64,000 bases of DNA from Escherichia phage vB_EcoM_WFL6982 (MK373774.1); one strand, 5' to 3'. Shown: positions 1 through 37,587, counted from the stretch's first letter. Made by a program: numbers and translations. Notes: generated from the letters alone by a model not told the origin.

Positions 1-1174
1 GATAAGGTTGAACCGGGTGAGAACGACCTTGTGGAATCACCTTGTTCTGCTCTTTAAGGCTATTAAAAATAATAGCATCCCATGTTTTAATTGGGCTAAA
101 CACAGATTGAATCTGTATCTTAGCATAATAACCCATGTCCAAGCTCAAGTTGATGAACTGACGCTTAGAATCAATTTGCAATACACGATATACGTCGATA
201 ATGTTATAAGAAATATATCGTTGGTGATTGCTTTCACGAAGCTTAGAAATAGGGCCGTCGTATTTCAGTTTGCCAACGTTCAATTCAAATTCTGAAATGT
301 AATCCAGAGAATACGACGGTTGGTTCGTGAAAGAGAACTTTTTGTAAAGGTCAATGTAATCAAGAACAGAGATACCGAACAATGTAATGATTTCACGAGA
401 ACCATACATGTTTTCGATAACTTTAACACGAGTTTTACGATGTGGTGATAAACGTTTCGCAGTAGATTCGCCAAAAATATTCTTGATTCGGTTATACACA
501 TATGGAATATCAAATGACTCAACGTTCCATCCAGTCAAAATGACAGGAGTTTTCTGTTGCCAGAAGTTGAGATATTCCATCAACAATTCTTTTTCGTTAT
601 CGAACGGCATATAAATGATTTTATCGATAATTTCGGATGGAACTTCATCGCCGCCTTGTTCTTGAAGCTTAGCCGCAATTTCGATAGACCATTCTTCTAC
701 ATTACCATATGGAGAATTCAATAGATCAAATACGTAGAACCTGTCGTCAATTGAGTCATAATGGGTGATAGCATCAATTGGATGTTTTGCTTGTGACGGC
801 TCAGGGAACCCGTCCGGAGATGTTACTTCGATGTCGAAGTTAGCCACACGAATTTTTGTATGGTCGTATTTGATTTCATAGTTATAAGTGTCAGACAAAT
901 ACGCCAATTTGAAATCGTCCATGCCAAGTGCTTCAAGTCCGATATCTTCCATGCGTTTAATCCATTGGGAGGCATCACGCATATTAGCGAACAACTTACG
1001 AGTACACGGCTTACCGTAGATATCGAAATATTTCGTAGCCTGACTTTCTGGACAATGAGCAAACAGTGATGGTTTATATTCTACTTCACGAGTACGTTCA
1101 CGGCCATTAGAATCGATGTAACGTTCAAAAATTGAATCACCAATCTGTTCAACCGTTAAGTAAAATTCTTTCAT
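1..1174 (-). CDS. 43: DNA polymerase gp43, N-terminal portion; gene runs off the window start
   Basis: Reverse-strand translation from ATG ~1174 reads MKEFYLTVEQIGDSIFERYIDSNGRERTREVEY..., collinear with T4 gp43 N-terminus; sits downstream of regA as in T4. Plus-strand track ORFs here are antisense artefacts. Confidence 0.9.
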   Translation of the reverse strand, partial: MKEFYLTVEQIGDSIFERYIDSNGRERTREVEYKPSLFAHCPESQATKYFDIYGKPCTRKLFANMRDASQWIKRMEDIGLEALGMDDFKLAYLSDTYNYEIKYDHTKIRVANFDIEVTSPDGFPEPSQAKHPIDAITHYDSIDDRFYVFDLLNSPYGNVEEWSIEIAAKLQEQGGDEVPSEIIDKIIYMPFDNEKELLMEYLNFWQQKTPVILTGWNVESFDIPYVYNRIKNIFGESTAKRLSPHRKTRVKVIENMYGSREIITLFGISVLDYIDLYKKFSFTNQPSYSLDYISEFELNVGKLKYDGPISKLRESNHQRYISYNIIDVYRVLQIDSKRQFINLSLDMGYYAKIQIQSVFSPIKTWDAIIFNSLKEQNKVIPQGRSHPVQPY

Positions 1175-1255
1175 TTAATTTCCTTTAGACGAGTTATTGT
1201 CTTTTGTTTGTTGATGAACTTATTATACTCCAAATGGGACCGAAGTCCCATTGCT

Positions 1256-1624
1256 TTAATTACCAATTGTATATTTTGCTTTCAAAGTCCAGTCATCTTT
1301 CTGTTTAAAAGAGATAACACGGAAGTTATTAGTCAGGCCAAACAGATCTTCACGAGCAGAGTCTTCAATAACAATCAATCCCCAGTCTTCAAGCAACTGA
1401 GCAATCGAATCACGTCGCTGATAGTCTTCACCATCAATATCAACCTGACGTCCGTCCATACGCAGCATTTCTTTAAAGTGGACGATGTAATATTTACCTT
1501 GCTTTTGGAGGATATGACAGGACTGATAAAGAACTTTATCCTTGTTATTAGCGATGCCCATACGGGTCAGAGTCTCTTTGACTTTCAGAAAATCTTCGGG
1601 GTTCTTCAATTTAATTTCGATCAT
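1256..1624 (-). CDS. regA: RegA translational repressor
   Basis: Track ORF 1256..1633; from internal ATG (M4) MIEIKLKNPEDFLKVKETLTRMGIANNKDK... matches T4 RegA (122 aa); start overlaps end of gene 62. Confidence 0.9.
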   Translation of the reverse strand: MIEIKLKNPEDFLKVKETLTRMGIANNKDKVLYQSCHILQKQGKYYIVHFKEMLRMDGRQVDIDGEDYQRRDSIAQLLEDWGLIVIEDSAREDLFGLTNNFRVISFKQKDDWTLKAKYTIGN

Positions 1625-1626
1625 TT

Positions 1627-2190
1627 TTACCATTCCAATGCTAATTTTTTAAATTGTTTTTGTTCTTTCACATTTTTTGTAACTTCTTTGAGAAACTCAT
1701 CAGTGACCATGGCCTTCAGTTCTTTAAGGACTATTGGCAACTTGTTATTTTTTTCAAGGAGCCGCTTATACTCGGTAGCATCATTCATGTTGATTGTGTA
1801 ATGTTTCATCAACAGTTTGATAACTAGTAACTCTGAAGTGTCTTCGACTAGTTTAGCCCATTTAGAGAATCGTCGGCCACGTGGAATTGCCGCCATCATA
1901 TAGTTGAAGTGCGCTTCATCACTTAATTCAGAACCGACTAAGTTCATCATGTAAACGGCTGGCATACATTCTGGGAACTGGGATAATGAGTTCTCAACCA
2001 TAAATTTTGAGTAGTCGACCTGAGCAATTGACATAGATTTCTTTTCATTAATAGCATTAATGATTTTAAAGAATTCATTCTCAGGTTTTTCTTTAAACAT
2101 GTCAGCACATTTTTGAATCGCATCAGCGTCATTAGACTTCCATGCAATTTGGTGCTCGTTAAGTTGGACGTCATCATCAAATAAGTTCAT
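1627..2190 (-). CDS. 62: Clamp loader small subunit gp62
   Basis: 187 aa, same length and position as T4 gp62, between gene 44 and regA. Confidence 0.85.
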
Positions 2191-2191
2191 A

Positions 2192-3154
2192 TTATTTCCA
2201 AGTCAGTTCGCAGGTCAGTTGAAGAAGCATATACATAACGTGTAATTCAATATTACTAGCTAGTCCATGAAACTTATTATTTTCGCCTGCAATTTCATAA
2301 AGCGAAATAATACTTTTACCAGGTGCAACTTTGTCATAACACTCGGAAACTAATTTATCGATGAACCATGAATAATCTGCAGCGTATTTTGGAGCTAATG
2401 CACGAAGCTGTTTGATATCTTTATTTTTCATTGCTTCTATGACATCATCTACCGTGCCACGATCATTGGTTACAATCGACAAAATACCTGCATCAAGAAC
2501 ACCTTTAGACGAGTACTGGTCTAATTGACCAATTGTACGTCGAAAGTCCGGGAAGTTCTTTTTAACCAGAGCTGCAACAACTTTCATATCAGCGATTTCG
2601 ATATTTTCGTTCTTACAGATTTCAACCATGCGATGAATCATTTTCTTCATCATTGAGATTTTATCTTCTTCGGTTGGACGTCCGAATTCGATAACTCGAC
2701 AACGACTACGTAACGGTTCGATAATTCCATCGATGTTGTTGGCAGTAATAATAATAGAACAGTTACTAGAGAATTCTTCCATGAATGTACGAAGGTGACG
2801 TTGTGATTCGGCGAGGCCACTACGGTCAAATTCATCAATAACAATAACTTTAGGCTTGCCTTCCATTGAGACTGAACGAGCGAATGCAGTTAACGGACCA
2901 CGCACAAAATCAATCTTACAATCAGAACCGTTGACGAACATCATTTCGGCATTGATATCATTACATAATGCTTTTGCTACGGTTGTTTTACCGGTACCAG
3001 GAGATGGAGAGTGTAAAATAATATGAGGAAGTTTTCCTTTAGATACTAAAGACTTGAATGTTTCATGGTCATACGCAGGCAGAATACATTCGTCAATGGA
3101 AGAAGGACGATATTTCTGTTCTAGAATGTGTTCTTTGTAATTGATAGTAATCAT
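2192..3154 (-). CDS. 44: Clamp loader large subunit gp44 (AAA+ ATPase)
   Basis: 320 aa; Walker [11 protein letters not shown], Walker B VIVIDEFD; T4 gp44-like throughout. Confidence 0.95.
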
Positions 3155-3229
3155 GTAATTTTCCTCATTATCATTAAACTGGAGGATTTCTCCTCCATAA
3201 TCGTACTACATTAAACGTAAAGCTTTGAC

Positions 3230-3916
3230 TTAGAAGTCGTGGGTAGAATCGGCTTCCATCGCAATAACATAACTTACTTGAGAGCTTTCAAACTTGGCTG
3301 CAACTTTATCACCAGCTCCCCACAACATTACTTTATAGTTACCTGGCTGGATTTTCATATTAGCCATATTGATTACGAAGTTAAAGTTGTTAGAACCATC
3401 ATAATCAGTAAGAGTCAAAGAATACTTAGGACGAGTCAAGCCAGAATCTTCAACTTTATTGTAACCGTTGATAACAATTTTACCATCTTTATTTGTAATA
3501 GCAATTGTATCAATCTGAAGACCGCGTGAAACTCGAAGCAATTGTTGAAGGTCTTCGGCTTTAATTTCAGTAATCACAGAAGCCATTGGGAATTGAATTG
3601 GCTTATTAGGAAAAACAATGGTGCTCTTGTCGGCAGCAGGCCAATAAACTGTGGAACGTGTATCTGCAATTTTAATATTGCCATCAGTATGCATTGAAAT
3701 TTCGGCATCATCAGACACTAGACTCAAAATGCTTAAGAAGCTATTCAAATCATAAAGTGCTACGTCAAAATCAATTTCATCAGAGATATTTGCTTCCGCA
3801 TAAGTGGTGCCATTAACTGCACGAGTCATAATAAATTTACCTTGACTCAGCAGAATGCCAGAGTTAATAGAGGCAAAGTTTTTCAGAATAGCGATAGTAT
3901 CTTTAGACAGTTTCAT
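3230..3916 (-). CDS. 45: Sliding clamp gp45
   Basis: From internal ATG MKLSKDTIAILKNFASINSGILL... 228 aa ending ...AMEADSTHDF, matching T4 gp45 length and termini. Confidence 0.95.
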   Translation of the reverse strand: MKLSKDTIAILKNFASINSGILLSQGKFIMTRAVNGTTYAEANISDEIDFDVALYDLNSFLSILSLVSDDAEISMHTDGNIKIADTRSTVYWPAADKSTIVFPNKPIQFPMASVITEIKAEDLQQLLRVSRGLQIDTIAITNKDGKIVINGYNKVEDSGLTRPKYSLTLTDYDGSNNFNFVINMANMKIQPGNYKVMLWGAGDKVAAKFESSQVSYVIAMEADSTHDF

Positions 3917-3958
3917 TTTATTTCCTTTCAAGACAATTCAAAGTTTATAACAAATTTA

Positions 3959-4375
3959 TTATGCAGCAACCATCTGCTTTTTAATAGCTTCAGGCAGTGA
4001 TTCAATATATTCTGGAATTTTAGAAGCAACAATTTCGCCAGCTGCAATTAGTTGTTCGTCGGCATCAACACAGTAGAAATCTTCCAGACGCTCAGAACCG
4101 TCTTTATCAAGAACGATTTTTGCGCCAGCTTCAATAGAATCTTTATAGTGCTTACGCATCAGATGAATCCACATATCAGATACATCGTTATCAATAAAAC
4201 CATAAATCATAAAACGAGTTTCTTGCGGCAAAGATTGGAGTTTTTTAGCACTTGCGTCATCACAATGCAGGACCCATGCTTTACGAACACGATTATGGTT
4301 ATGTGGGTTAGCGTCAGTACGGATAGAAGTAACTTTCAGATCAGCAGCAGTGAAACCTTTAGCAGTAGTAAACAT
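3959..4375 (-). CDS. rpbA: Putative RNA polymerase binding protein RpbA
   Basis: 138-aa ORF at the T4 rpbA position between genes 45 and 46; assignment by synteny and size only. Confidence 0.5.
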   Translation of the reverse strand: MFTTAKGFTAADLKVTSIRTDANPHNHNRVRKAWVLHCDDASAKKLQSLPQETRFMIYGFIDNDVSDMWIHLMRKHYKDSIEAGAKIVLDKDGSERLEDFYCVDADEQLIAAGEIVASKIPEYIESLPEAIKKQMVAA

Positions 4376-4387
4376 ATTATTTCTCTC

Positions 4388-4588
4388 TTATTCGTAGAAG
4401 TCGGTAACTGTCCATGCAGAATTGCGATTAGACATTATTTTATTATACTCATCTTTAAAAGCAGATTTGAGCATTTGTTCAGTAACAATATGTTCTTCAC
4501 CTGAAAACGTATTGGTCAAAACATATTTTTTAATTTCAGGGACAACGAGAAGATGTTGTCCAGTTGAATACTCCATGTTGTTCTCCAT
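4388..4588 (-). CDS. Hypothetical protein (T4 45.2 position)
   Basis: 66-aa ORF between rpbA and gene 46. Confidence 0.4.
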   Translation of the reverse strand: MENNMEYSTGQHLLVVPEIKKYVLTNTFSGEEHIVTEQMLKSAFKDEYNKIMSNRNSAWTVTDFYE

Positions 4589-4630
4589 TTAATTTGATGT
4601 GGTCATTATAACCACATCGTGTTAAAGCGT

Positions 4631-6319
4631 TTATGAAACAGTCATTACTGTAAATCGTCCAACTTTGCTCATCTGAAGATGTTGTCCATAAGCTTGTGGG
4701 TCATGGTCTCTGTGACTAATTATAAACACGTTTGCATCGGTTAGAGAGTTAAGAATTGTTGAAATAGCTTTAATACCTTCAGAATCAGTCGCGGAATCCA
4801 TGACTTCGTCCATAATTAATGTATTGATTCTAACACCAGAGACCTTTTCAGCAATATCTCGCCATGTAAACAACAACGCGATATCGATACGTGCTTTTTC
4901 ACCTTGACTAAATGAAGCATAACTGAACTCTTCACGGCCACGTGATTTTATAGATTCATTGAATTCTTCGTCAATAGAAAACACGTAATCAGCTTCCATG
5001 ATTTTAAGATAATGGTTAATCTGCTTGTTGAACAGAGGCACATATTTTTTAATGATAGCACCTTTAATACCAGAATCTTTTAACATATCTGTGATAATAC
5101 CACGATGGTATTTTTCAAGAACGATATCTGATTTTGTTTTAATGATTTTATCAAGTTCTTTTTGAAGCAAAGCTATCTCATCGGCATGGTCGATAAATTC
5201 TGCTGAGGCTTGCTCTATTGCAGCTTTAACTTTCTTAGCTTTATCAATAGTGGCAATCATTGCTTGTTTCTTGGTACGAATATCAGATGCAAGGTCCTGC
5301 TTAGTCTTAACATTAGCTCTATATTCATCAACTAGGACACTCAGATTATCTCTGTGACAGGTAAGTTGCTCGAATGAGTGATTACATTCATGAAGCTTAT
5401 CGGTAATCTTAGAGACAATAGGGTCACCCTGGTGCAATTGTGATGCACAAGTAGGACATGTGCCACCGTCATGATACATCTTAATAACTTTGTTATATGA
5501 GTCGATTTTAGATTTAATCAAGAATGCTTCTTGTCCTATCTTGTTGAATGCCTCAGTAGGGTCTTCATCAAGAACGATATTAAGTAGTCGCTCATTAGCT
5601 TCTTCGATTTCTGCTTTTAATGAACGAGCTTCTTTGGCTAGGTCGTCATACATATTCTGTAGACGCGCTACATTATCACCAGATAATTTCTTTTGACGTT
5701 CGATATTCTCGTTATAAATCTTAATTTGTTGGATAATACCATCTTTCTTGGCATCAAGAACTTGTCCCTGAGAATTAAGTTCGCGAACTTGAGACTTATT
5801 GATTTTATCCATTTCAGCGAGTGTGCCGACTTCTAAAAGGTCTTCGACAAGTTTTCTACGAGCAGGGGTGCTAAGAGCCATGAAAGGGGTATACCCTGCC
5901 GTCCCAAGCACAACGATTTGTTTAAAAGACGCGTATGACATTCCGATGCTACGTTCAAATTCTTCTTGGAAGTCACGACTGCTGGCAGATTCATCGAGAC
6001 GAACACCGTCAACGGAGATTTCGAAAATATTGGGCTTTTGGCCACGTTTAATGAAGTATTTTTTATCATCGAATTCCATCCAAAGCTCAACTAAGAGCTC
6101 TTTCTTGTTCGTGCTATTAATGATTTGTCCTTTCTTAACATCACGAAATGGTTTACCGAAAAGTCCGAAAGTAATGGCTTCTAACATCGTAGATTTACCA
6201 CCGCCATTTTTACCTGTGATTAAGGTCTTTTGGACTTTATCTAATTGGATATCGATAAAATTTTGCCCAACAGACATTATATTTTTATAACGAACACGAT
6301 TTAATTTAAATGATTTCAT
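4631..6319 (-). CDS. 46: Recombination endonuclease subunit gp46 (SbcC/Rad50-like ATPase)
   Basis: 562 aa; N-terminal Walker A GKNGGGKST, long coiled-coil middle with CPTC zinc hook, C-terminal signature/Walker B LIMDEV; T4 gp46-like. Confidence 0.95.
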   Translation of the reverse strand: MKSFKLNRVRYKNIMSVGQNFIDIQLDKVQKTLITGKNGGGKSTMLEAITFGLFGKPFRDVKKGQIINSTNKKELLVELWMEFDDKKYFIKRGQKPNIFEISVDGVRLDESASSRDFQEEFERSIGMSYASFKQIVVLGTAGYTPFMALSTPARRKLVEDLLEVGTLAEMDKINKSQVRELNSQGQVLDAKKDGIIQQIKIYNENIERQKKLSGDNVARLQNMYDDLAKEARSLKAEIEEANERLLNIVLDEDPTEAFNKIGQEAFLIKSKIDSYNKVIKMYHDGGTCPTCASQLHQGDPIVSKITDKLHECNHSFEQLTCHRDNLSVLVDEYRANVKTKQDLASDIRTKKQAMIATIDKAKKVKAAIEQASAEFIDHADEIALLQKELDKIIKTKSDIVLEKYHRGIITDMLKDSGIKGAIIKKYVPLFNKQINHYLKIMEADYVFSIDEEFNESIKSRGREEFSYASFSQGEKARIDIALLFTWRDIAEKVSGVRINTLIMDEVMDSATDSEGIKAISTILNSLTDANVFIISHRDHDPQAYGQHLQMSKVGRFTVMTVS

Positions 6320-6570
6320 ATGTATTCTCTTCGAATGAAGTCCTCTACATATTTTAACATGTCATCTCTATCAGCAAAATATTCATCTAGTTCTGCATAC
6401 ATAACAACACCTGGTGCATACTCGCAAGTAACATACATTGTTCCAAAGAAACGAGGAGTTGATTCCTCGTAATTCTCAGTCCATTCAACGATGCCAATAT
6501 AACCGTCACCAATACTAAATTCATGACGATGGATTTCATAATCAGTCTTCGTCATTATACGCATCCTCAA
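6316..6570 (-). CDS. Hypothetical protein (T4 46.1 position)
   Basis: 84-aa ORF, stop/start overlap with neighbours. Confidence 0.45.
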   Translation of the reverse strand: MRMRIMTKTDYEIHRHEFSIGDGYIGIVEWTENYEESTPRFFGTMYVTCEYAPGVVMYAELDEYFADRDDMLKYVEDFIRREYI

Positions 6571-6799
6571 TACACGCTTCAGCCATTTTAAGAATAGAGC
6601 CGGGAGTATCGTTGTCCATTATATTAAAGCTAAATTCAATAGCCCAGTCGGTGCAGACATGAACTGCTTTAACTTCATTGCCTTCAACGCGTAATGGCTC
6701 AATCCAATACTTGATGGTGTTCTCGAATCCATCATCATCTTTAACGTCTATTTCAACTTCAAGCCCGAGCCCAGCATTGTTAAATTCATCTAAAGTCAT
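6542..6799 (-). CDS. Hypothetical protein (T4 46.2 position)
   Basis: 85-aa acidic ORF; overlaps gene 47 stop. Confidence 0.45.
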   Translation of the reverse strand: MTLDEFNNAGLGLEVEIDVKDDDGFENTIKYWIEPLRVEGNEVKAVHVCTDWAIEFSFNIMDNDTPGSILKMAEACIEDAYNDED

Positions 6800-20202: not shown

Positions 20203-20730
20203 TTATGCGTGAACCGTCTTTAAACGTTCTTCAAATTTCCGAAGAGTACTAATACGTTCTGCTTTCTGTTTTGTATAGTTTGCAATACGTTCTGAAGTGA
20301 GAGCGTATCGTTCGTTTACTGTTTCTTTCATGAAGTCAGGGATTTCACGAGAAGCTTTAATTTCATCAAACTTATCGAGTACTGCCTGGTCTTCAGCAAT
20401 TAAATTTTCGTACATCTCGATATCTTTCTTGATGAAGTCGATATCTTCCTGGGTTACTTTGGATAAACGAGATGCTTTATCCTTTTTGTACTGCTCGTTA
20501 GTTTCACGAGACCAGAATAATGTACGTTTTTTGTTAGTGTTTTTGTAGACTTCCACAATTCCAACTGAATCGATGATAACAATCCAATTCCAGCGAGATT
20601 TGAAAATCTGACCTCCGTCCACGGTAATCTCGTTACCATAAGCAACGTCATTAAAGAACTTGCTTTGTGCTTCAGATTTAAATTTACCGTCGTTATAATT
20701 TACCAGGTTGAAAATATCTTTAGCGTTCAT
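20203..20730 (-). CDS. Hypothetical protein (175 aa)
   Basis: Track ORF; ATG start with GGAGGT SD directly downstream of an early promoter. Confidence 0.5.
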   Translation of the reverse strand: MNAKDIFNLVNYNDGKFKSEAQSKFFNDVAYGNEITVDGGQIFKSRWNWIVIIDSVGIVEVYKNTNKKRTLFWSRETNEQYKKDKASRLSKVTQEDIDFIKKDIEMYENLIAEDQAVLDKFDEIKASREIPDFMKETVNERYALTSERIANYTKQKAERISTLRKFEERLKTVHA

Positions 20731-20757
20731 GTTTTACCTCCAGTAGTTGATAGGTCT

Positions 20758-20786
20758 ATAATAACATAACCATAGACCTTGTAAAC
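20758..20786 (-). promoter_or_regulatory. T4 early-type promoter (GTTTAC -35, TGnTATTAT extended -10, 17-bp spacer)
   Basis: Minus strand GTTTACA-AGGTCTATGGTTATGT-TATTAT-AGACCTATC; spacer arm AGGTCTA is complementary to TAGACCT after the -10. Approximate coordinates. Confidence 0.55.
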
Positions 20787-21214: not shown

Positions 21215-22195
21215 TTATTTCAGTAAAGTAACTTCCGAGATTTCCTCCCAACCATCTTTATCAGTTGAAATAAAATCTGCTACATAAAGAGCCGTACGTA
21301 ATGATACATTGCGAAGACGAGATACGTTAGCCTTCATCCAGGACAATGCTTTGTACGTTTCTGCATCCGTCAGGCCACGTTTCTGCATCATGTCAGTAGA
21401 TAATATTACATCTTCAACTCGGACCATAATCTCTTCATTAGAGTGTACTCCAAGGTCGAGATACACTGAACGAGATACTAAAGCTTGAAGGTGTGGAGCA
21501 AGTTTCGAACCACGTTCTAACTCTTTATCGATATCAACGTTTGTAATGAAAACGATAGTACCTTCAAACTCAAATTCTTTATCAATACCCTTATCCTCGA
21601 GATAAGATGACGCAGTGCTCCAACAAACTTTGCGTTTATCTCCGGTATCTAATGCTGCTTTAAGAAGGTTCAGGATGTCCATATCTGAGAATACGTCAAC
21701 GTCATCGATTAAGAGAACGCTGTCTGCATCACGGTTGAGCCAAAGTTGTTCGTAAAGGCCAATACCAGAGATTTTACCATTAATGCTTTTGTATTTGATG
21801 AAACCATTATCATTAGCATTATTAAGTGCTTTATCCAGAGAATATGTCTTACCAATACCGGCTGCACCTGAAATAATGAGTGAACGAATTTTGCCATCGA
21901 TAATACCATTCGTCATCATGTTCATTACTTTAAAGCGTTTGTTGATACGAGTTTTCATATCTTCAGTGCTTTCAACAACTGCAACCGGTGACGTCTCAAC
22001 TCCTTCCATTATGATGTCTGATTTGAAGACCCATACTCCACGTTCAGAACCATCAATCATAACGAAAATTTTACCATCACCTAAGTGGGAACATTCAGGA
22101 TTAAGCTTTACCGGGAACCAGGTCTTTGTGGCAACATAAGAACCAGAGATTTCGTTATTACGATAGATACCTTTTTTGATTTGAACGTTGAACAT
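21215..22195 (-). CDS. P-loop NTPase (AAA-like) with ~100-aa N-terminal domain
   Basis: Track ORF 21215..22207 (TTG); ATG at M5 with GGAGAA SD. Walker A GAAGIGKT, Walker B VLLIDDVD. Confidence 0.6.
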   Translation of the reverse strand: MFNVQIKKGIYRNNEISGSYVATKTWFPVKLNPECSHLGDGKIFVMIDGSERGVWVFKSDIIMEGVETSPVAVVESTEDMKTRINKRFKVMNMMTNGIIDGKIRSLIISGAAGIGKTYSLDKALNNANDNGFIKYKSINGKISGIGLYEQLWLNRDADSVLLIDDVDVFSDMDILNLLKAALDTGDKRKVCWSTASSYLEDKGIDKEFEFEGTIVFITNVDIDKELERGSKLAPHLQALVSRSVYLDLGVHSNEEIMVRVEDVILSTDMMQKRGLTDAETYKALSWMKANVSRLRNVSLRTALYVADFISTDKDGWEEISEVTLLK

Positions 22196-22234
22196 TTTAT
22201 TCTCCAAATTTACTCATTTCGTTTCGATAGGTCT

Positions 22235-22263
22235 ATAATAACATGTTTAAAGCAAAAGTAAAC
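22235..22263 (-). promoter_or_regulatory. T4 early-type promoter
   Basis: Minus strand GTTTAC, 17-bp spacer, TGTTATTAT-AGACCTATCG, upstream of the ATPase gene. Approximate coordinates. Confidence 0.55.
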
Positions 22264-22265
22264 AA

Positions 22266-22484
22266 TTATTTGCGACGAGATTTTTTGGTAAGAGGTTGAA
22301 AGAACACTGCTTTACCGGCTGGGGTTAAGGTGACTCGTAATGCATTACCGATTCCCAAGGATGCTTTAACCAGACCTTTAGATTTCAGTTCACCGAATGC
22401 TTGACGTTGGTCTGCATCACGAGTGTTAACCATAAGACCTTTATCACCTGCTTCACGAATCATTTCTAACATTTTTGTTTTCAT
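22266..22484 (-). CDS. Small hypothetical protein (72 aa), possibly nucleic-acid binding
   Basis: Track ORF; GAGGAG SD; basic C-terminus. Confidence 0.45.
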   Translation of the reverse strand: MKTKMLEMIREAGDKGLMVNTRDADQRQAFGELKSKGLVKASLGIGNALRVTLTPAGKAVFFQPLTKKSRRK

Positions 22485-22514
22485 TTTGTTTTCTCCTCTT
22501 GTTTTGATAAGTCT

Positions 22515-22543
22515 ATAATAACATATCCTAAAAGCATGTACAC
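22515..22543 (-). promoter_or_regulatory. Early-type promoter variant (GTGTAC -35-like, TATTAT -10)
   Basis: Minus strand GTGTAC, 17 bp, TATTATAGACTTATCAAAAC, upstream of ORF 22266..22484. Approximate coordinates. Confidence 0.4.
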
Positions 22544-22571
22544 TACTTTTTAAAAATATTTTGACCCCCTA

Positions 22572-22589
22572 AAGGGCCTGAAGGCCCTT
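22572..22589 (-). other. Stable hairpin (7-bp GC-rich stem, tetraloop) just downstream of the nucleotidyltransferase gene
   Basis: Plus strand aagggcc-tgaa-ggccctt; no U-run, so more likely an mRNA 3'-end stability or processing element than an intrinsic terminator. Confidence 0.45.
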
Positions 22590-22590
22590 A

Positions 22591-23580
22591 TCATTTATAG
22601 TACGAATTGTGGTTTTCTAAGTAGACTTGCTCAAGGAAGTCATCCCAGAAACTCATATCTACTTTTTGTTGCATACCGTTCTTAGCAGCTTGTTCTGCTG
22701 CATGTTCAACTTGGTCAACGATATCTTCTAGGAATTCTTGTACAGTTTTAAACGTATGTTTACCAAGCTTAACATCGAGAATAAATGGAGCATCCTGAAG
22801 TGGGTAAACCAGGTCGCCGGTTTTGTAAATTTCCAATAATTGAAGTCCACCACGACATGCATGACTCAATGCTTTCCAGTCAATACCTTCGTTGGCTTCT
22901 GCCTTACGAGCACGTTCGCCATAGTTCTCTTCCAGTTTAACCAGGATGGCATTGAACTCTTTATTGGTTAACGTATCTTGGAATTTACGGTCTAACAGAT
23001 TATAGAATGTTTGCATACCTGTTTTCTCGTTTTCGGTTTCAACCCACGAAGCAAATTCACCTACAGGCAGAACATTCTTCATATGTGATAAACGAATTAC
23101 TGCACCATTATCAAAGTATTGTCCCCATTCATTAGAACGTTTAAGGGCTTGACGAAGAACAGCCAGTCGAGAACCCTTGACACCGTATTTAGAAGCTTGC
23201 TTACGGACATACCCTAAATAAGATTTCATGTTAGTGGTATAGAAACGAGACCTGTTATCTTGAATATACTTCCATACATCAGGCAAATCAGATTTAACTA
23301 CTAGACTTTGTGGAGTGTGAAGCATGTCTAATGCGACGGTTTCACCGTCCACAGCTAGTTTAAAGAAATATTTGAGACTATACAACTCATGGTCCACGTC
23401 GTCTTTTGTGTTCTTAGAAGATGTGTTATTCGTGTTCTTGCTCATGTGTTCTTTAACGTTACCGGTCAAGATATCACGAGCATGAGGGACATAAATTTCT
23501 TTAAAATCGACGTCAGATTCAGGAGTAGACGTTCCATAAAGGTGGCTACCAAAGTAGCCTTTCATAATTGTTTTCATCAT
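22591..23580 (-). CDS. Nucleotidyltransferase-fold protein (329 aa)
   Basis: N-terminal GYFGSHLYGTSTPESDVDF fits the Pol-beta/minimal NTase signature hG[GS]x9-13 Dh[DE]h; helical C-terminal region; start overlaps the upstream membrane ORF stop. Confidence 0.55.
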   Translation of the reverse strand: MMKTIMKGYFGSHLYGTSTPESDVDFKEIYVPHARDILTGNVKEHMSKNTNNTSSKNTKDDVDHELYSLKYFFKLAVDGETVALDMLHTPQSLVVKSDLPDVWKYIQDNRSRFYTTNMKSYLGYVRKQASKYGVKGSRLAVLRQALKRSNEWGQYFDNGAVIRLSHMKNVLPVGEFASWVETENEKTGMQTFYNLLDRKFQDTLTNKEFNAILVKLEENYGERARKAEANEGIDWKALSHACRGGLQLLEIYKTGDLVYPLQDAPFILDVKLGKHTFKTVQEFLEDIVDQVEHAAEQAAKNGMQQKVDMSFWDDFLEQVYLENHNSYYK

Positions 23581-24050
23581 TTAGCCTTATATTCAAGAGT
23601 AGGACAGACTTTTTCTTTACGAGCTTTAAGGTATTCGCCTATTAATGATTTCTTACGTTCAATAGGCCCAAGTCCATTTTTAATTCGTTCTTGGTTTTGC
23701 GCAATGAGCTCAATTTCTTTATAATATTTTCTGTCGTTATATTTGTCTAACAACCAAGACGGACCAATTATCAATCCGGCAGAAATAAAAGCCATGACTG
23801 CTACCATTAAAATGCCTACACCAATTGAGGCCGGAACTAATGTCCATAGACTGCTAAAAACAAAGAATTTAGTTAAAATTTCATGGCCAACGATTGTGAC
23901 TGCTGCTAAAATCGCAAATCCAATAATTGAAACAGACAATACCGGAATTAACGTTTTCCAAAAATAAGCACACAACGTTTTCGGGCGATTCCATGTACTA
24001 TTGAACGCGGCATAAATTTTAAAGTGCCAAGAGTTTTCATTGATAATCAT
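23577..24050 (-). CDS. Membrane protein (157 aa, two or more TM helices)
   Basis: LIPVLSVSIIGFAILAAVTIVG and GVGILMVAVMAFISAGLIIG hydrophobic helices; 4-nt overlap with the downstream NTase gene. Confidence 0.5.
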   Translation of the reverse strand: MIINENSWHFKIYAAFNSTWNRPKTLCAYFWKTLIPVLSVSIIGFAILAAVTIVGHEILTKFFVFSSLWTLVPASIGVGILMVAVMAFISAGLIIGPSWLLDKYNDRKYYKEIELIAQNQERIKNGLGPIERKKSLIGEYLKARKEKVCPTLEYKAK

Positions 24051-24059
24051 AATAATTCC

Positions 24060-24593
24060 TTATTTCAAAGTCGGGATAATAGAATCAAGATAAGCTTTAA
24101 GAGCAACTGCTTCATCTTTGTCTAATGTAACGATATGTTGACGAAGGTCATCAATTTGACGAATAACTACGACATCACCATCTTCATAAGAAGGATTAAC
24201 GCCTAGGACTGTTGTATAGTCAGGGCGGTCCTGATTTGTAATAAAAGCATTACGGCATTTAGCCCATTGAAGTTTGGCCTTTTTGGCTGTTTCAGATTCC
24301 ATTAATTCTTTCACCTTAGTGACGAATGTTTTCCAATTATTAATAGAAAAACATTCGTCTTCAGTTTCGATATTGGCCGCGTTGTAAAGACCCGGATAAA
24401 AACGAACTTGGAGGTCTTCACCAATGTTAATTACCTCTCGACGACGTCCAGACGGATTGAGTTTCAAAATCTTGTCCAGTTCCATAGGAAGAATAGTAGC
24501 AGCATCATCTTCTTGTGTCAGAACATACACATAACCACGTTTTTCGATACATAAATCACCGAACAACTCGGTTGTTTCAATTACAGTTTTCAT
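24060..24593 (-). CDS. Hypothetical protein (177 aa)
   Basis: Track ORF 24060..24605 (TTG); ATG at M5 MKTVIETTELF... Confidence 0.5.
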   Translation of the reverse strand: MKTVIETTELFGDLCIEKRGYVYVLTQEDDAATILPMELDKILKLNPSGRRREVINIGEDLQVRFYPGLYNAANIETEDECFSINNWKTFVTKVKELMESETAKKAKLQWAKCRNAFITNQDRPDYTTVLGVNPSYEDGDVVVIRQIDDLRQHIVTLDKDEAVALKAYLDSIIPTLK

Positions 24594-24774: not shown

Positions 24775-24909
24775 TTTACCATACTCGTTTCAATAAGATT
24801 CACTATGCCGTTTACCATGTTATAAGTAAACATCGGATAATTGTATTGTACCACAACATAAGCGATAAGCAAAAGTTTCATTTTGTTCTCCGTTTGTTTT
24901 GATAGGACT

Positions 24910-24939
24910 ACTATAACATAGTCCTACCAAGATGTAAAC
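24910..24939 (-). promoter_or_regulatory. T4 early-type promoter with flanking 8-bp inverted repeat
   Basis: Minus strand GTTTACATCTTGG-TAGGACTA-TGTTATAG-TAGTCCTA-TCAAAAC. Approximate coordinates. Confidence 0.5.
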
Positions 24940-25436: not shown

Positions 25437-25886
25437 TTAGATAGATGTAGGCTCTAATTTTATTTTCATGAACTCGGCAAATTGTCTGGCAGTTTTTATG
25501 CCTTGTTCATGACATTCAAATGCATCATCACAGGGGCTATTTTTGTAATGCTTTGCCATATACTTATAGAATTTTTCAGAATTCTCGACATTTTGAATTT
25601 CAAACAAAGTATATACGTTTTTAATCCCTGATTCCATAAAGTTATCAAAATATGGGTCGGTATATGCAGTACCAACGATAGGAGTTGTTGCTGCAAAAAA
25701 CCCCAGCATCGCCTTAACATCTGTGAGGTATTTTTCCAGCTTGCGCTTGCGTGTATAATCAGCTTTAGAACCAGTTTGACGGATATCCTCGTTTAAATGA
25801 GAAATAGAATGTCCTAATTCTCTTCGGATTTCATCCAATTGGGTTACAGTAAGATTACGAAGTTGTCTTTCGTTTAATTGCTGCAT
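25437..25886 (-). CDS. rI: Lysis inhibition regulator rI-like protein
   Basis: C-terminal ~90 aa (...[69 protein letters not shown]) resembles T4 RI; the ORF has a ~59-aa in-frame N-terminal extension, so the true start may be internal. Confidence 0.6.
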
Positions 25887-26504: not shown

Positions 26505-26687
26505 TTATAGTGAATTCACGTAGTCAATGAGTTCTTGTTCTTTCCTGTCAAATGATTCCATCAATGCGTGATATTCTTCGTCCGTCAAAGGAGCATATTC
26601 ATCATACGCATTGGTGGCTGATTGTTCATCCAATAGGTCATGGATAAGTTCGAATAGTTTAGCTTTCTCTTCTTTAGTCAATTTCAT
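26505..26687 (-). CDS. Small hypothetical acidic protein (60 aa)
   Basis: Track ORF. Confidence 0.45.
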   Translation of the reverse strand: MKLTKEEKAKLFELIHDLLDEQSATNAYDEYAPLTDEEYHALMESFDRKEQELIDYVNSL

Positions 26688-27178
26688 TTAGGTTCCCAAT
26701 CAACAATCACAATTTCTAGTTTAGTGGAATATGTATCTAAAATCTCTTCGATGACGTCCCAGTTTCCACCGCCAATACCTGCACCAATTCTTGGCATATA
26801 AATTACAGGCTTTGTTATCTTATTCTTTCCGAATTCATTTAATTCTATTATACAATTCATTAAAGCAGAGTACTCAAAATTAGGTCCCGGCTCAAACTGT
26901 GTATAAAGATTAAAGCAATAAGCTTTATGGGTCTTAAAATATTTTTCATAAACCGAATAAGTCCCGAGTTTAGACTTGTCTCCGAATTCGGTTTGAAGTT
27001 TATCGGCTTCTAAAATTTTTGGATAAGCCTTTGCTAATTGGCCTGCTACACCGGCGCCCATTGTATGAAAACAATTACACCCATGAGCAATATTATTACC
27101 TTTAGAAAACAGGGCGACAATATCGCCCTTGATATAGTTTTTAATCACTTGCTGCAAGTCCTCTATTATAAGAGTCAA
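26684..27178 (-). CDS. Macro domain protein, TARG1/OARD1 (Poa1p)-like ADP-ribose processing enzyme
   Basis: GDIVALFSKGNNIAHGCNCFHTMGAGVAGQ and YMPRIGAGIGGGNWDVIEEIL blocks parallel human TARG1 (AHCISEDCRMGAGIA; SMPRIGCGLDRLQW). Starts with TTG; overlaps upstream gene end by ~38 nt. Confidence 0.6.
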   Translation of the reverse strand: MTLIIEDLQQVIKNYIKGDIVALFSKGNNIAHGCNCFHTMGAGVAGQLAKAYPKILEADKLQTEFGDKSKLGTYSVYEKYFKTHKAYCFNLYTQFEPGPNFEYSALMNCIIELNEFGKNKITKPVIYMPRIGAGIGGGNWDVIEEILDTYSTKLEIVIVDWEPK

Positions 27179-36270: not shown

Positions 36271-36666
36271 TTATTTTGACATATCATCAATTTGCTCTCG
36301 ACGCCGACGCCATAGATTAATCGCTTCATTAACACATTCGGCGTTTGGTATATGACGGCAATAATATAATGATTCGCGTTTCTGGAACCGATGTTGCAAC
36401 GGGATTTCGTTTAAAAGGTCTTTACGGTCAAAGTATTCAAAACTAGTTAACCCAGAACGATTTTTAAGAAACTTCCAATGTCCGAATTCATTTTGAAAAT
36501 AGACATAATCAGCATGCTGATACAGCGAATTAATTAACCTATCGGAAATAACTGTTTCACGTTCGTTAAAATAAAATGTTAAGTCATGAACTACCAGATA
36601 AATATTGCCTTTCATATTTTCCTCACTTAAAGTTGGTGCCTCTAGAAAGATTTGAACTCTCACCAT
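36271..36666 (-). CDS. Hypothetical protein (131 aa)
   Basis: Track ORF; start may be the internal ATG (MKGNIYLVVHDL...). Confidence 0.45.
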   Translation of the reverse strand: MVRVQIFLEAPTLSEENMKGNIYLVVHDLTFYFNERETVISDRLINSLYQHADYVYFQNEFGHWKFLKNRSGLTSFEYFDRKDLLNEIPLQHRFQKRESLYYCRHIPNAECVNEAINLWRRRREQIDDMSK

Positions 36667-36694
36667 TAACCTTAGAATGATTATATGCTATCCA

Positions 36695-37366
36695 TTACAC
36701 TATAGAGGCAATTAAATTATTTACAATATCTTCTTTATAAACTTCAGCATAATGAAGTTCATATATTTCCCATCCTAATGATTTTATAATATCATGGCGT
36801 TCTTTATAATAAGGGGCCAAAATCTTTTTCTTAGGATTGGAGTAATGTTGGTTTCCATTAACTTCAATAATAATCTTTTTATCTATTAAAGCAATATCCG
36901 TGCAATACGCTCGGTTTTTAACCGGTTGGTATTCTTCAATAAATGAAATTCCATTTTCTATTAATTTAGATTTCAAAAATTCACAAGGCACAGATTTAAA
37001 TTTTGTATTTTTCTTCCAAGGATGTTTATCGGGGTTTTCATTCAACCATTTTTTCCGAGCATTAGATATTTTTATTCTAGCTTCCTCAGAGTGTTCTCTA
37101 CCTAATGAAGCGGCTGACAATTTTTGTCTAGTCTCTTCCGAAATTACTACAGGAACACCAGTCTTTTTAGATACAACATACTGGTTTAAATTACCTGAAG
37201 CTATACGTGCTTTATTCATTGCTGCAATGGCTGATTTAGAACTTTCTTTATACAATTCCAATTTAGGGTTGGATTTACACCATCTAGTGTGGTTAGCCAT
37301 CCATCCTTTAGGTTTATTAGAAATATCAAATTCCATATTACAATGTTTACAAATGCTCATTACCAA
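36695..37366 (-). CDS. Putative endonuclease: N-terminal zinc ribbon plus C-terminal DUF559/Vsr-like nuclease domain
   Basis: N-terminal CKHC...HTRWC; C-terminal DIALIDKKIIIEVNGNQHY...RHDIIKSLGWEIYEL fits the D...EhxG.QH...R...GW pattern of DUF559-type nucleases. Lies next to the tRNA genes. Confidence 0.45.
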   Translation of the reverse strand: MVMSICKHCNMEFDISNKPKGWMANHTRWCKSNPKLELYKESSKSAIAAMNKARIASGNLNQYVVSKKTGVPVVISEETRQKLSAASLGREHSEEARIKISNARKKWLNENPDKHPWKKNTKFKSVPCEFLKSKLIENGISFIEEYQPVKNRAYCTDIALIDKKIIIEVNGNQHYSNPKKKILAPYYKERHDIIKSLGWEIYELHYAEVYKEDIVNNLIASIV

Positions 37367-37434
37367 TTATCTCCTATAAAATATAGGAGTATTTATTATT
37401 TGGATAGAGCACTTAATTTACTTCGTTTAAATTA

Positions 37435-37506
37435 CTGGCGCACTTGGACTCGAACCAAGATAAAGGAGTTAACAGCTCCCCGTAATAACCTTTATACGAT
37501 GCACCA
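37435..37506 (-). tRNA. tRNA-Asn (anticodon GTT)
   Basis: Hand-folded cloverleaf: acceptor TGGTGCA/TGCGCCA, anticodon stem GGGAG/CTCCT with loop CTGTTAA, T-arm CTTGG-TTCGAGT-CCAAG; no encoded CCA. Approximate coordinates. Confidence 0.7.
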
Positions 37507-37512
37507 TTTGTT

Positions 37513-37587
37513 TGGTGACCCTGGCTGGTTTCGATCCAGCTACCTATCAGTTATGAGCTGACAGCTCTCCCATTGAGCTACAGGGCC
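37513..37587 (-). tRNA. tRNA with CAT anticodon (Met, or Ile if lysidine-modified)
   Basis: Hand-folded: acceptor GGCCCTG/CAGGGTC, D-arm GCTC-AATGGGA-GAGC, anticodon stem GTCAG/CTGAT with loop CTCATAA, T-arm GCTGG-ATCGAAA-CCAGC, encoded CCA. Approximate coordinates. Confidence 0.75.

Follow-up and report, generated by a model that had tools for sequence, protein, structure and literature searches.

The segment lies within a 64,000-nucleotide stretch of Escherichia phage vB_EcoM_WFL6982 (MK373774.1), here called the window, which by sequence comparison is 100% identical to MK373775.1 (Escherichia phage vB_EcoM_WFK, a Mosigvirus). It holds four open reading frames (ORFs), all on the minus strand, for a membrane protein, a nucleotidyltransferase (NTase), a 72-aa protein and an ATPase. 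These had been singled out in a first-pass annotation of the DNA, and the ORFs, their motifs, the start/stop overlap and the two early-type promoters that it described are all in place. The features, in the direction of transcription, are:

24910..24938, minus strand: early-type promoter-like site TTTACA-N17-TATAGT (10/12), in the four-copy promoter repeat family D1
24060..24593, minus strand: MobD.1 / y05I homolog (Pfam), upstream gene of the same probable unit as the membrane gene and the NTase
23577..24050, minus strand: 157-aa membrane protein (hydrophobic segments, phrog_944)
22591..23580, minus strand: Pol-beta NTase, assigned as the T4 NrdC.11 ortholog (PF10127, phrog_388)
22563..22589, minus strand: terminator-like hairpin GGGCCTTCAGGCCC with a T-rich tail, immediately 3' of the NTase stop codon
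22515..22542, minus strand: early-type promoter-like site TGTACA-N16-TATTAT, before the 72-aa ORF
22266..22484, minus strand: 72-aa basic protein (phrog_6001)
22235..22262, minus strand: early-type promoter-like site TTTACT-N16-TATTAT (minus-strand reading GTTTAC), before the ATPase
21215..22195, minus strand: AAA+ ATPase, T4 NrdC.10 ortholog, 326 aa from its ATG

The gene order is tk ... mobD.1 - membrane gene - nrdC.11 - small ORF - nrdC.10 - nrdC.9 ..., and the segment sits in the variable early region of this T4-like genome. The four ORFs are real genes, since tblastn finds relatives in many phage records (1518 for the NTase, 1311 for the ATPase, 1092 for the membrane protein and 137 for the 72-aa ORF). 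Upstream of them, the MobD.1 homolog matches the Pfam families T4_y05I_N (2.7e-37) and T4_y05I_C (2.4e-19) and is 44% identical to T4 mobD.1. Rfam and tRNA scans of the flagged segment gave no match. The nrdC.11-mobD.3 block can be deleted from T4.

Because of the terminator-like hairpin, a GC stem and T-run annotated in MK373775 as a putative terminator, and of the separate early promoters, the segment divides into at least three separate transcription units. It is best read as something other than one functional module. The promoter-like site at 24910..24938 probably starts transcription of mobD.1, the membrane gene and the NTase as one unit, while the 72-aa ORF and the ATPase each sit behind an early-type promoter of their own (22542-22515 and 22262-22235), as had been proposed. 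Overall, promoter-like sites are no more numerous here than chance predicts (15, against a shuffled expectation of 14.5); the two sites at 22515..22542 and 22235..22262 have in common a 24-nt block, found in two copies in the window where none is expected by chance, and this block is part of a four-copy early-promoter repeat.

The NTase is a protein of 329 aa that begins MMKTIMKGYFGSHLYGTSTPESDVDF; the GenBank start is one codon later, giving 328 aa. GenBank records often label these genes "thioredoxin", which is wrong. The NTase is 77% identical to T4 NrdC.11 (NP_049709) and occupies the same place in both phages, between mobD.1 and nrdC.10; the ATPase is 78% identical to T4 NrdC.10 (NP_049708), again at the same position. 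Orthology to nrdC.11 and nrdC.10 follows from this 77-78% identity and the common gene order, so that the 329-aa protein is, on sequence grounds, the T4 NrdC.11 ortholog. The first-pass annotation had named, as evidence against its own proposal, that these might be conserved T4 ORFs with unrelated known roles. Conserved T4 ORFs they are (nrdC.10 and nrdC.11), and a different predicted role has been published for only one of them.

To which family does the NTase belong? Residues 7-137 match PF10127 (RlaP) at 8.4e-13 and 49 bits, the Pfam gathering cut-off being 23 bits, and the protein matches phrog_388 at 1e-125. Of the protein, the Pfam match takes in only the 130 residues at the N-terminus (profile positions 23-144 of 249), and the C-terminal half, with a beta-hairpin insert at 176-200, is clade-specific. 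Started from the window NTase, a homolog search brought back nothing below 98% identity, and the deeper set was gathered from the Cr30 homolog; PF10127 is present in all 240 of the 240 homologs among the matches listed. The Pol-beta motifs hG[GS], DxD and a third acidic residue are all present, and across 123 sequences, a set at 33-40% identity, G10, D22 and D24 are invariant, S11 is found in 122, position 62 is D or E in every sequence and position 64 is E or D in 122. The AlphaFold model (pLDDT 91.6) has a beta/alpha NTase domain followed by helices at 205-323. The description of this ORF as a Pol-beta NTase with a helical domain is thus borne out: it is a Pol-beta nucleotidyltransferase with an intact active site and a member of RlaP. 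Other searches added little. Single-sequence and profile searches of a PDB copy that does not hold the solved PfRlaP structure found nothing for the NTase, and a scan of five proteins against NCBIfam yielded no credible family, the two matches that it did give being below threshold and at chance level.

The membrane protein, described before as a two-helix protein whose gene overlaps the NTase start by 4 nt, fits that description. The overlap, in ...AAATGATGAAA, is 4 nt with the first ATG of the NTase and 1 nt with the second. Two long hydrophobic segments (about residues 29-60 and 62-102) predict an inner-membrane two-helix hairpin of an uncharacterised family (phrog_944, 5e-52; RB69 ORF104c type), and both ends are probably cytoplasmic because both are basic. 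Among 27 homologs, C27, Y29 and C149 are invariant and W8, H9 and K147 nearly so. No Pfam or PDB relative was found, each member giving chance-level matches against Pfam.

Does this protein work with the NTase? In Tevenvirinae its gene is translationally coupled to the NTase and the abutting arrangement is kept in 13 loci, which could mark a real partnership, one in which an RlaP-type NTase works physically with the membrane protein, so that repair is tethered or regulated at the inner membrane, with the ATPase unrelated. Consistent with this are the coupling itself, the position of the membrane gene upstream of and on the same strand as the NTase in 44 of the 48 loci that have both, and the strong conservation of the family, with invariant Cys/Tyr motifs at both cytoplasmic ends. 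However, of 79 viral contigs that carry the NTase, 48 have the membrane gene within 10 kb, 38 the ATPase and 55 the unrelated thymidine kinase gene, tk, so that these genes are linked to the NTase no more strongly than tk is. Only 13 of the 79 have the membrane gene abutting the NTase; in most loci, one to three ORFs lie between them, with gaps of 350-1840 bp. T4 has swapped the membrane gene for the mobD homing endonuclease at that position yet kept the NTase, and no such partner accompanies the RlaPs of bacteria or of distant phages. A physical partnership of this kind is therefore rather unlikely. The membrane gene also stands alone in ICP1 and an Erwinia jumbo phage, as does the NTase in Cr30, phiN3 and Vibrio D483.

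The NTase and the membrane protein, possibly with the ATPase, had originally been put forward as a possible nucleotide-signalling or protein-AMPylating module, for host takeover or superinfection exclusion. Such a module would resemble CBASS or Hailong. In Hailong, the HalB NTase works with a membrane channel, HalA, and the NTase product controls a membrane effector. The overlapping stop and start, the abutting genes in the 13 related loci and the fold of the NTase can all be read this way, since the best PDB folds found for the model by Foldseek are the kanamycin NTase ANT(4') and HalB (for HalB, probability 1.0, TM 0.49 by target length, E = 9e-3). The kanamycin NTase was indeed one of the families suggested for comparison, but the HalB match is no better than that to kanamycin NTase, at 9-14% identity (10-14% for HalB), and the membrane-family profile found neither HalA nor any other channel in the PDB (best E about 1). 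The other suggested families did not appear. PADLOC defence models match none of the proteins; CD-NTase, CBASS cyclase (cGAS/DncV-like) and Fic structures are absent from the 50 best Foldseek PDB matches; AbiEii and MenT toxin NTases have no PADLOC or Pfam match and none is in the top 50 folds; and there is no Fic Pfam match, the NTase fold being Pol-beta. A Hailong pair, with a HalB-like NTase and a HalA-like effector in one operon, was not found either, as the pairing is lost in T4 and distant phages: the membrane gene is missing from T4 and most distant NTase loci, and in ICP1 it has no NTase nearby. With an NTase of the RlaP family, whose relatives sit in RNA-repair operons, a signalling or AMPylating module is very improbable, and that part of the first reading is not upheld.

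A variant that combines these ideas would make the Tevenvirinae membrane protein, with its invariant Cys/Tyr and near-invariant Trp-His at the cytoplasmic ends, a true RlaP partner, in keeping with the translational coupling, that localises or gates RNA-end tailing at the inner membrane, or a membrane effector under the control of the NTase product, as a phage-borne analogue of Hailong, with NrdC.10 maybe as a third component. This we regard as decidedly improbable.

The ATPase, called a P-loop ATPase from the start, is one: it carries SGAAGIGKT and VLLIDDVD and the full set of AAA+ features (Walker A, Walker B, sensor 1, arginine finger, sensor 2, and an alpha/beta core with a helical lid), arranged as an N-terminal beta domain (about residues 1-64), the AAA+ core and the lid. 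It belongs to the phrog_1250 AAA+ family, and Nolan et al. 2006 had already remarked on the AAA motif of NrdC.10. The protein probably works as an oligomeric AAA+ motor; nucleic acid as its target is a guess. Its P-loop region gives weak matches to phrog_168 (3e-4) and, in a PDB profile search, to RFC4/ORC1 (E = 2e-3 to 9e-3), and the ranking of folds is flat, taking in MCM, MoxR, sigma-54 activators, dynein, DnaA, ORC and RFC. The RefSeq labels "helicase loader" and "clamp loader" for this family stem from weak P-loop similarity. The deeper homolog search was run from the Sharanji homolog. The family is essentially phage-only, since a scan of bacterial genomes with a 7-sequence alignment gave only 5 loci, 4 of them on short contigs of metagenome-assembled genomes.

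An ATPase serving the NTase was considered and rejected: the gene is preceded by a separate promoter, Vibrio and jumbo phages carry it without the NTase, and in some relatives the 72-aa ORF replaces it. In Vibrio D484 and D524 it stands alone beside replication and nucleotide-metabolism genes, and in the jumbo phages Sharanji and Deifobo it stands alone in unannotated surroundings. The 72-aa ORF (phrog_6001, 7e-43) is present in 5 of the 79 NTase loci and absent from T4, and is a sporadic, shuffled accessory gene. Outside close relatives, both the membrane protein and the ATPase part from the NTase, and the suggestion that these genes function together is not supported. What this analysis adds is mainly negative: the membrane protein, the small ORF and the ATPase are not to be taken for parts of one module.

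What, then, does the NTase do? For the RlaP family, both PMC7824862 and PMC12776372 cite Burroughs & Aravind 2016, and T4 NrdC.11 has been named as a member, in cluster 5 (PMC12776372; Carruthers, Fatma & Huang 2025 preprint). Two Pseudomonas RlaPs, from P. fluorescens and P. aeruginosa, add 1-2 NMP to RNA 3'-OH ends, are inactive on DNA or protein and prefer Mn2+ (PMC12776372). By family membership, the NTase is predicted to do likewise, adding 1-2 nucleotides to RNA 3'-OH ends. The 3'-OH product suits the 5'-phosphate ligases of the Pnk/Rnl pathway, as reasoned in PMC12776372, whose authors themselves call the repair role "potential", and in jumbo phages the presence of RlaP mirrors that of RNA ligase (Iyer et al. 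2021). A role in repair and anti-defence has been predicted in published work (Burroughs & Aravind 2016; Iyer et al. 2021; Carruthers et al. 2025).

Instead of repairing tRNAs trimmed by anticodon nucleases, the NTase could act on RNA 3' ends in other ways, by mending the CCA ends of tRNAs or by tailing host or phage transcripts and so altering their stability. Bacterial RlaPs label rRNA, whole tRNAs and tRNA fragments with little NTP specificity (PMC12776372), the C-terminal domain of the T4 clade is unlike that of the characterised clade, and in T4-like phages the gene lies apart from the repair genes: the WFK genome encodes a polynucleotide kinase and two RNA ligases (Rnl1, Rnl2), distant from the NTase gene, and in neither WFK nor T4 is that gene adjacent to pseT, rnlA or rnlB. 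On the other hand, RlaP favours the 3' end of the 5' tRNA half in a cleaved-tRNA mimic (PMC12776372), and relatives are found in Hen1-Pnkp, RtcB and RNA-ligase contexts. The closest bacterial relative found, which is plasmid-borne in Asticcacaulis (37% identity over 287 residues, E = 9e-61), sits in a Hen1 - Pnkp - NTase - second RlaP operon; in Deferribacter, RlaP is 2.6 kb from RtcB; the NrdC.11 homolog of phiN3 is flanked by two RNA ligase genes; one viral contig (L086) has RlaP - HD - RNA ligase, with a kinase further along; and one homolog (P0162) is fused to an HD_4 domain. A role of this other kind is accordingly unlikely, if not negligibly so.

The best explanation of the whole, and a fairly probable one, is tRNA repair by an RlaP-type NrdC.11, with the other three genes as independent neighbours. 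This explanation is based on family membership, the conserved active site, the repair context of the relatives and the fact that the same phage has genes for Pnk, Rnl1 and Rnl2; what we infer is the substrate of the NTase, how many nucleotides it adds and the biological target (RloC-type nucleases). A host anticodon nuclease or other ribotoxin would cut a tRNA and trim at least one nucleotide from the cut end. The phage polynucleotide kinase/phosphatase would then turn the 2',3'-cyclic phosphate end into a 3'-OH, to which the GS...DxD...D/ExE site of the NTase would add one or two nucleotides without a template. Finally, phage Rnl1 or Rnl2, which join a 5'-phosphate to a 3'-OH, would seal the break, restoring a fraction of functional tRNA.

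Why would such a step be of use? RloC-type anticodon nucleases remove a nucleotide after cutting, and this trimming should defeat classical kinase-plus-ligase repair. If NrdC.11 does put the lost nucleotides back, it would give T4-like phages a means of countering RloC-type nucleases, and the oldest known RNA-repair pathway would gain a third enzymatic step. An anti-defence role of the NTase via tRNA repair is plausible, and to this extent the earlier suggestion of a counter-defence function in a lytic phage survives, although not in the form of an NTase-membrane module.

How does the WFK NTase compare with known systems? With ANT(4') and HalB it shares the minimal Pol-beta NTase fold and a helical C-terminal domain, but identity is only 9-14%, with E about 1e-3 to 1e-2 and TM 0.3-0.5, nothing points to an aminoglycoside or oligo-dA function, and there is no HalA-like partner. 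T4 NrdC.11 and RlaP are closer, having the same GS, DxD and acidic third motif, in the model an NTase domain followed by a helical domain, and relatives in repair operons. However, the Pfam profile aligns with the N-terminal half alone, no ligase gene is adjacent in this phage, and unlike the characterised RlaPs, which are from Pseudomonas and fall in cluster 1a, the WFK protein, of predicted activity, is in the phage-rich cluster 5. The T4 PseT kinase/phosphatase and Rnl1 counter the PrrC anticodon nuclease, and this classical repair rejoins ends that were cleanly cut. Genes for Pnk, Rnl1 and Rnl2 occur in the same phage lineage; the putative NTase step would come on top of the classical T4 steps and be required only after a loss of nucleotides.

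The flagged segment matches MK373775.1 (Escherichia phage vB_EcoM_WFK, Mosigvirus, Straboviridae) at 100% identity, a window coordinate being the MK373775.1 coordinate minus 32000, and the minus strand carries every one of its genes. The four ORFs on which the first-pass annotation had focused are all found where it placed them:

21215-22195, minus strand: 326-aa ATPase, ortholog of T4 NrdC.10
22266-22484, minus strand: 72-aa basic protein
22591-23580, minus strand: 329-aa nucleotidyltransferase (NTase), ortholog of T4 NrdC.11, with GYFGSHLYGTSTPESDVDF at its N-terminus
23577-24050, minus strand: 157-aa membrane protein

The features ascribed to them are likewise present: the NTase signature near the N-terminus, the Walker A (GAAGIGKT) and Walker B (VLLIDDVD) motifs of the ATPase, two long hydrophobic segments in the proposed two-helix membrane protein, an overlap of the membrane gene stop with the NTase start (within ATGATGA), and early-type promoter sites upstream of both the 72-aa ORF and the ATPase. 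These are real genes, with tblastn hits to 1518 phage records for the NTase, 1311 for the ATPase, 1092 for the membrane protein and 137 for the 72-aa ORF.

It is close to certain that the NTase belongs to the RlaP family. Its score for Pfam PF10127 ("RlaP, RNA repair pathway DNA polymerase beta family") is 49 bits, where the gathering threshold is 23, and it also hits phrog_388 ("nucleotidyltransferase") at 1e-125. In an alignment of 123 homologs with 33-40% identity, G10, D22 and D24 are invariant, S11 is found in 122, and an acidic residue occupies position 62 in all and position 64 in 122; such conservation means that selection acts on the active site. In the AlphaFold model, which is of high confidence (pLDDT 91.6), the NTase domain is N-terminal and of beta/alpha type, residues 176-200 form an inserted beta-hairpin, and the C-terminal domain is long and helical. 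The top Foldseek matches in the PDB are all NTase folds: Hailong HalB, kanamycin NTase ANT(4') and a "nucleotidyltransferase-like" protein from structural genomics (probabilities 0.95-1.0, with weak E-values and 9-14% identity). The fold originally proposed is right. The further suggestion that the NTase follows the logic of nucleotide-signalling defence or of protein-AMPylating effectors does not hold: the best 50 PDB matches include no CD-NTase, cGAS, AbiEii/MenT or Fic structure, and PADLOC returned no match.

What would an RlaP do for a phage? Burroughs and Aravind, who took the family name from an association with RNA ligase genes, predicted that these enzymes replace nucleotides lost at damaged RNA ends, with ligation following (as relayed in PMC7824862). 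A preprint of December 2025 describes the RlaPs of P. fluorescens and P. aeruginosa, which extend RNA 3'-OH ends by one or two NMPs, work best with Mn2+ and are inactive on DNA and on protein; offered a mimic of a cleaved tRNA they favor its 5' half, and they partly rescue aminoacylation of a tRNA lacking one anticodon-loop nucleotide (PMC12776372). The RlaP assignment of nrdC.11 is already published there, T4 NrdC.11 being named explicitly as a member of cluster 5.

The genomic surroundings of NTase relatives point in the same direction. In the plasmid collection the top hit is an Asticcacaulis protein (37% identity over 287 residues, E = 9e-61), encoded by the third gene in an operon of Hen1, Pnkp, the NTase and a second RlaP. 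Hen1-Pnkp operons are the classical bacterial RNA-repair system. (The two tandem paralogs of this operon, on plasmid pASDW145_1 at 1077-6790 of locus L099, differ in form: one is long and T4-type, its Pfam match restricted to the N-terminal half, and the other is a canonical full-length PF10127 protein with 236 bits.) RlaP and RtcB genes are 2.6 kb apart on a Deferribacter megaplasmid, RNA ligase genes lie on both sides of the NrdC.11 homolog in Sinorhizobium phage phiN3, and on L086, a viral contig of environmental origin, an HD phosphohydrolase and an RNA ligase come after the homolog, with a kinase further on. A 495-aa metagenomic homolog (P0162) has an HD_4 (PF13328) phosphohydrolase domain fused to its RlaP domain, which fits joint end-healing and end-tailing. 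WFK itself encodes one polynucleotide kinase and two RNA ligases, away from the NTase.

Restoration of nucleotides at RNA 3' ends is the best-supported mechanism for the NTase, and the predicted repair role in the phage is likely. Following the argument of the preprint, RlaP would leave a 3'-OH end, and phage ligases join a 5'-phosphate to a 3'-OH; the products would feed the phage kinase-ligase repair pathway.

Do the neighboring genes form a module with the NTase, as first proposed? The evidence says that they do not work together, or at least not necessarily. A terminator-like hairpin 3' of the NTase and two promoters split the segment into separate transcription units. These early-type promoters, ahead of the 72-aa ORF and the ATPase (-35 GTTTAC or TGTACA, 16-nt spacer, TATTAT), share a 24-nt block not predicted by chance, and both are members of a promoter repeat with four copies of about 40 nt (TATTATAGACCTATCAAAAC... 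on the minus strand) within a 4-kb stretch, one ahead of each transcription unit:

20729-20768, minus strand: early-promoter block copy
22206-22245, minus strand: early-promoter block copy
22486-22525, minus strand: early-promoter block copy
24881-24920, minus strand: early-promoter block copy

In T4-type genomes, promoter/stem-loop cassettes are thought to shuffle small ORFs, and the repeated block looks like one of these. Two copies bracket the sporadic 72-aa ORF (phrog_6001), an arrangement that fits cassette-like shuffling; in phage JS98 this ORF is about 12 kb from the NTase locus.

In distant phages the neighbors separate. Cr30, phiN3 and Vibrio phage D483 have the NTase with neither the membrane gene nor the ATPase beside it, four phages have the ATPase without the NTase (two jumbo phages, Vibrio D484, where ribonucleotide reductase and topoisomerase genes flank it, and Vibrio D524, where it lies between dUTPase/clamp-loader genes and a helicase gene), and ICP1 and one Erwinia jumbo phage have the membrane gene alone. 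Of 79 IMG/VR loci with the NTase, 48 have the membrane gene within 10 kb, 38 the ATPase and 55 the unrelated tk, used as a control; where the NTase was <60% identical, the corresponding counts were 9, 5 and 14 of 38. This pattern is the inherited gene order of a variable region, not a selected module. A possible counter-defence role survives from the proposed takeover, superinfection-exclusion or anti-defence module, but the module logic does not.

A partnership between the NTase and the membrane protein is a minority view, kept alive by one feature, the translational coupling in Tevenvirinae. Only 13 loci, which are all close relatives, have the membrane gene adjoining the NTase; in the remainder 350-1840 bp of other ORFs separate the two. 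The protein belongs to phrog_944, and no relatives were found in Pfam or the PDB. The 27 homologs compared share an N-terminal NSWH...LCxYFW and a C-terminal KAxKxKxCP motif on either side of the two transmembrane helices, with C27, Y29 and C149 invariant. This uncharacterized family, whose gene is coupled to that of the NTase in T-even-like phages, is the sole remaining lead. (In D483, a 159-aa ORF overlapping the start of the NrdC.11 homolog, at 5508-5987 of locus L005, is not a membrane protein and has a P-loop-like GAPASGKN motif.)

The order in WFK is tk, an rI.1/rI-like ORF, small ORFs, mobD.1 (Pfam T4_y05I_N/C), the membrane gene, nrdC.11, the 72-aa ORF, nrdC.10, nrdC.9 and nrdC.8, and local tblastn finds the same in T4 except in two places. 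T4 has no 72-aa ORF, and the HNH homing endonuclease mobD (NC_000866, 56429-57208) sits exactly where WFK has the membrane gene (window 23577-24050). The membrane gene is present at this site in WFK, RB69-like and many Tequatrovirus phages, which suggests that in T4 it was displaced through mobD insertion. A 149-aa ORF (window 25437-25886, minus strand) aligns in one frame with T4 rI.1 (residues 1-59) and rI (residues 60-145), which in T4 are separated by two stop codons and the start of rI; it is either an rI.1-rI fusion or rI with an internal start at Met60. A macro-domain protein (T4 Tk.4 homolog, window 26684-27148), about 3 kb upstream of the NTase, and three tRNA genes (Arg-TCT, Asn-GTT and Met-CAT, window 36634-37587) could be relevant to RNA or ADP-ribose conflict biology. 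Many GenBank phage records label NrdC.10, NrdC.11 and adjoining ORFs "thioredoxin"; Pfam scans found no thioredoxin domain in any of these proteins, and the label seems to have been carried over from gene names of the form "nrdC.x".

The ATPase is 78% identical to its ortholog T4 NrdC.10, an ORF whose AAA motif has been recognized since 2006. RefSeq calls it a "helicase loader" or "clamp loader", names that are unsubstantiated. Profile matches to RFC4 and ORC1 stop at their P-loop. The family is almost exclusive to phages: among 185,579 species genomes of bacteria and archaea only five loci turned up, four of them on short contigs from metagenome-assembled genomes. The model (pLDDT 94.4) has an AAA+ core with a lid, preceded by a small beta domain at the N-terminus, and the positions under conservation are consistent with Walker A, a DD-type Walker B, sensor 1 (N219), an arginine finger (R242) in an SRS/SRC motif and sensor 2 (R295/R300). 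At residues 164-165, the Walker B Asp-Asp (LLIDDVD) is invariant in place of the usual Asp-Glu, as in DnaA, and the SRS of the arginine-finger region is replaced in Pseudomonas phage Deifobo by SRC, reminiscent of the SRC motif of clamp loaders.
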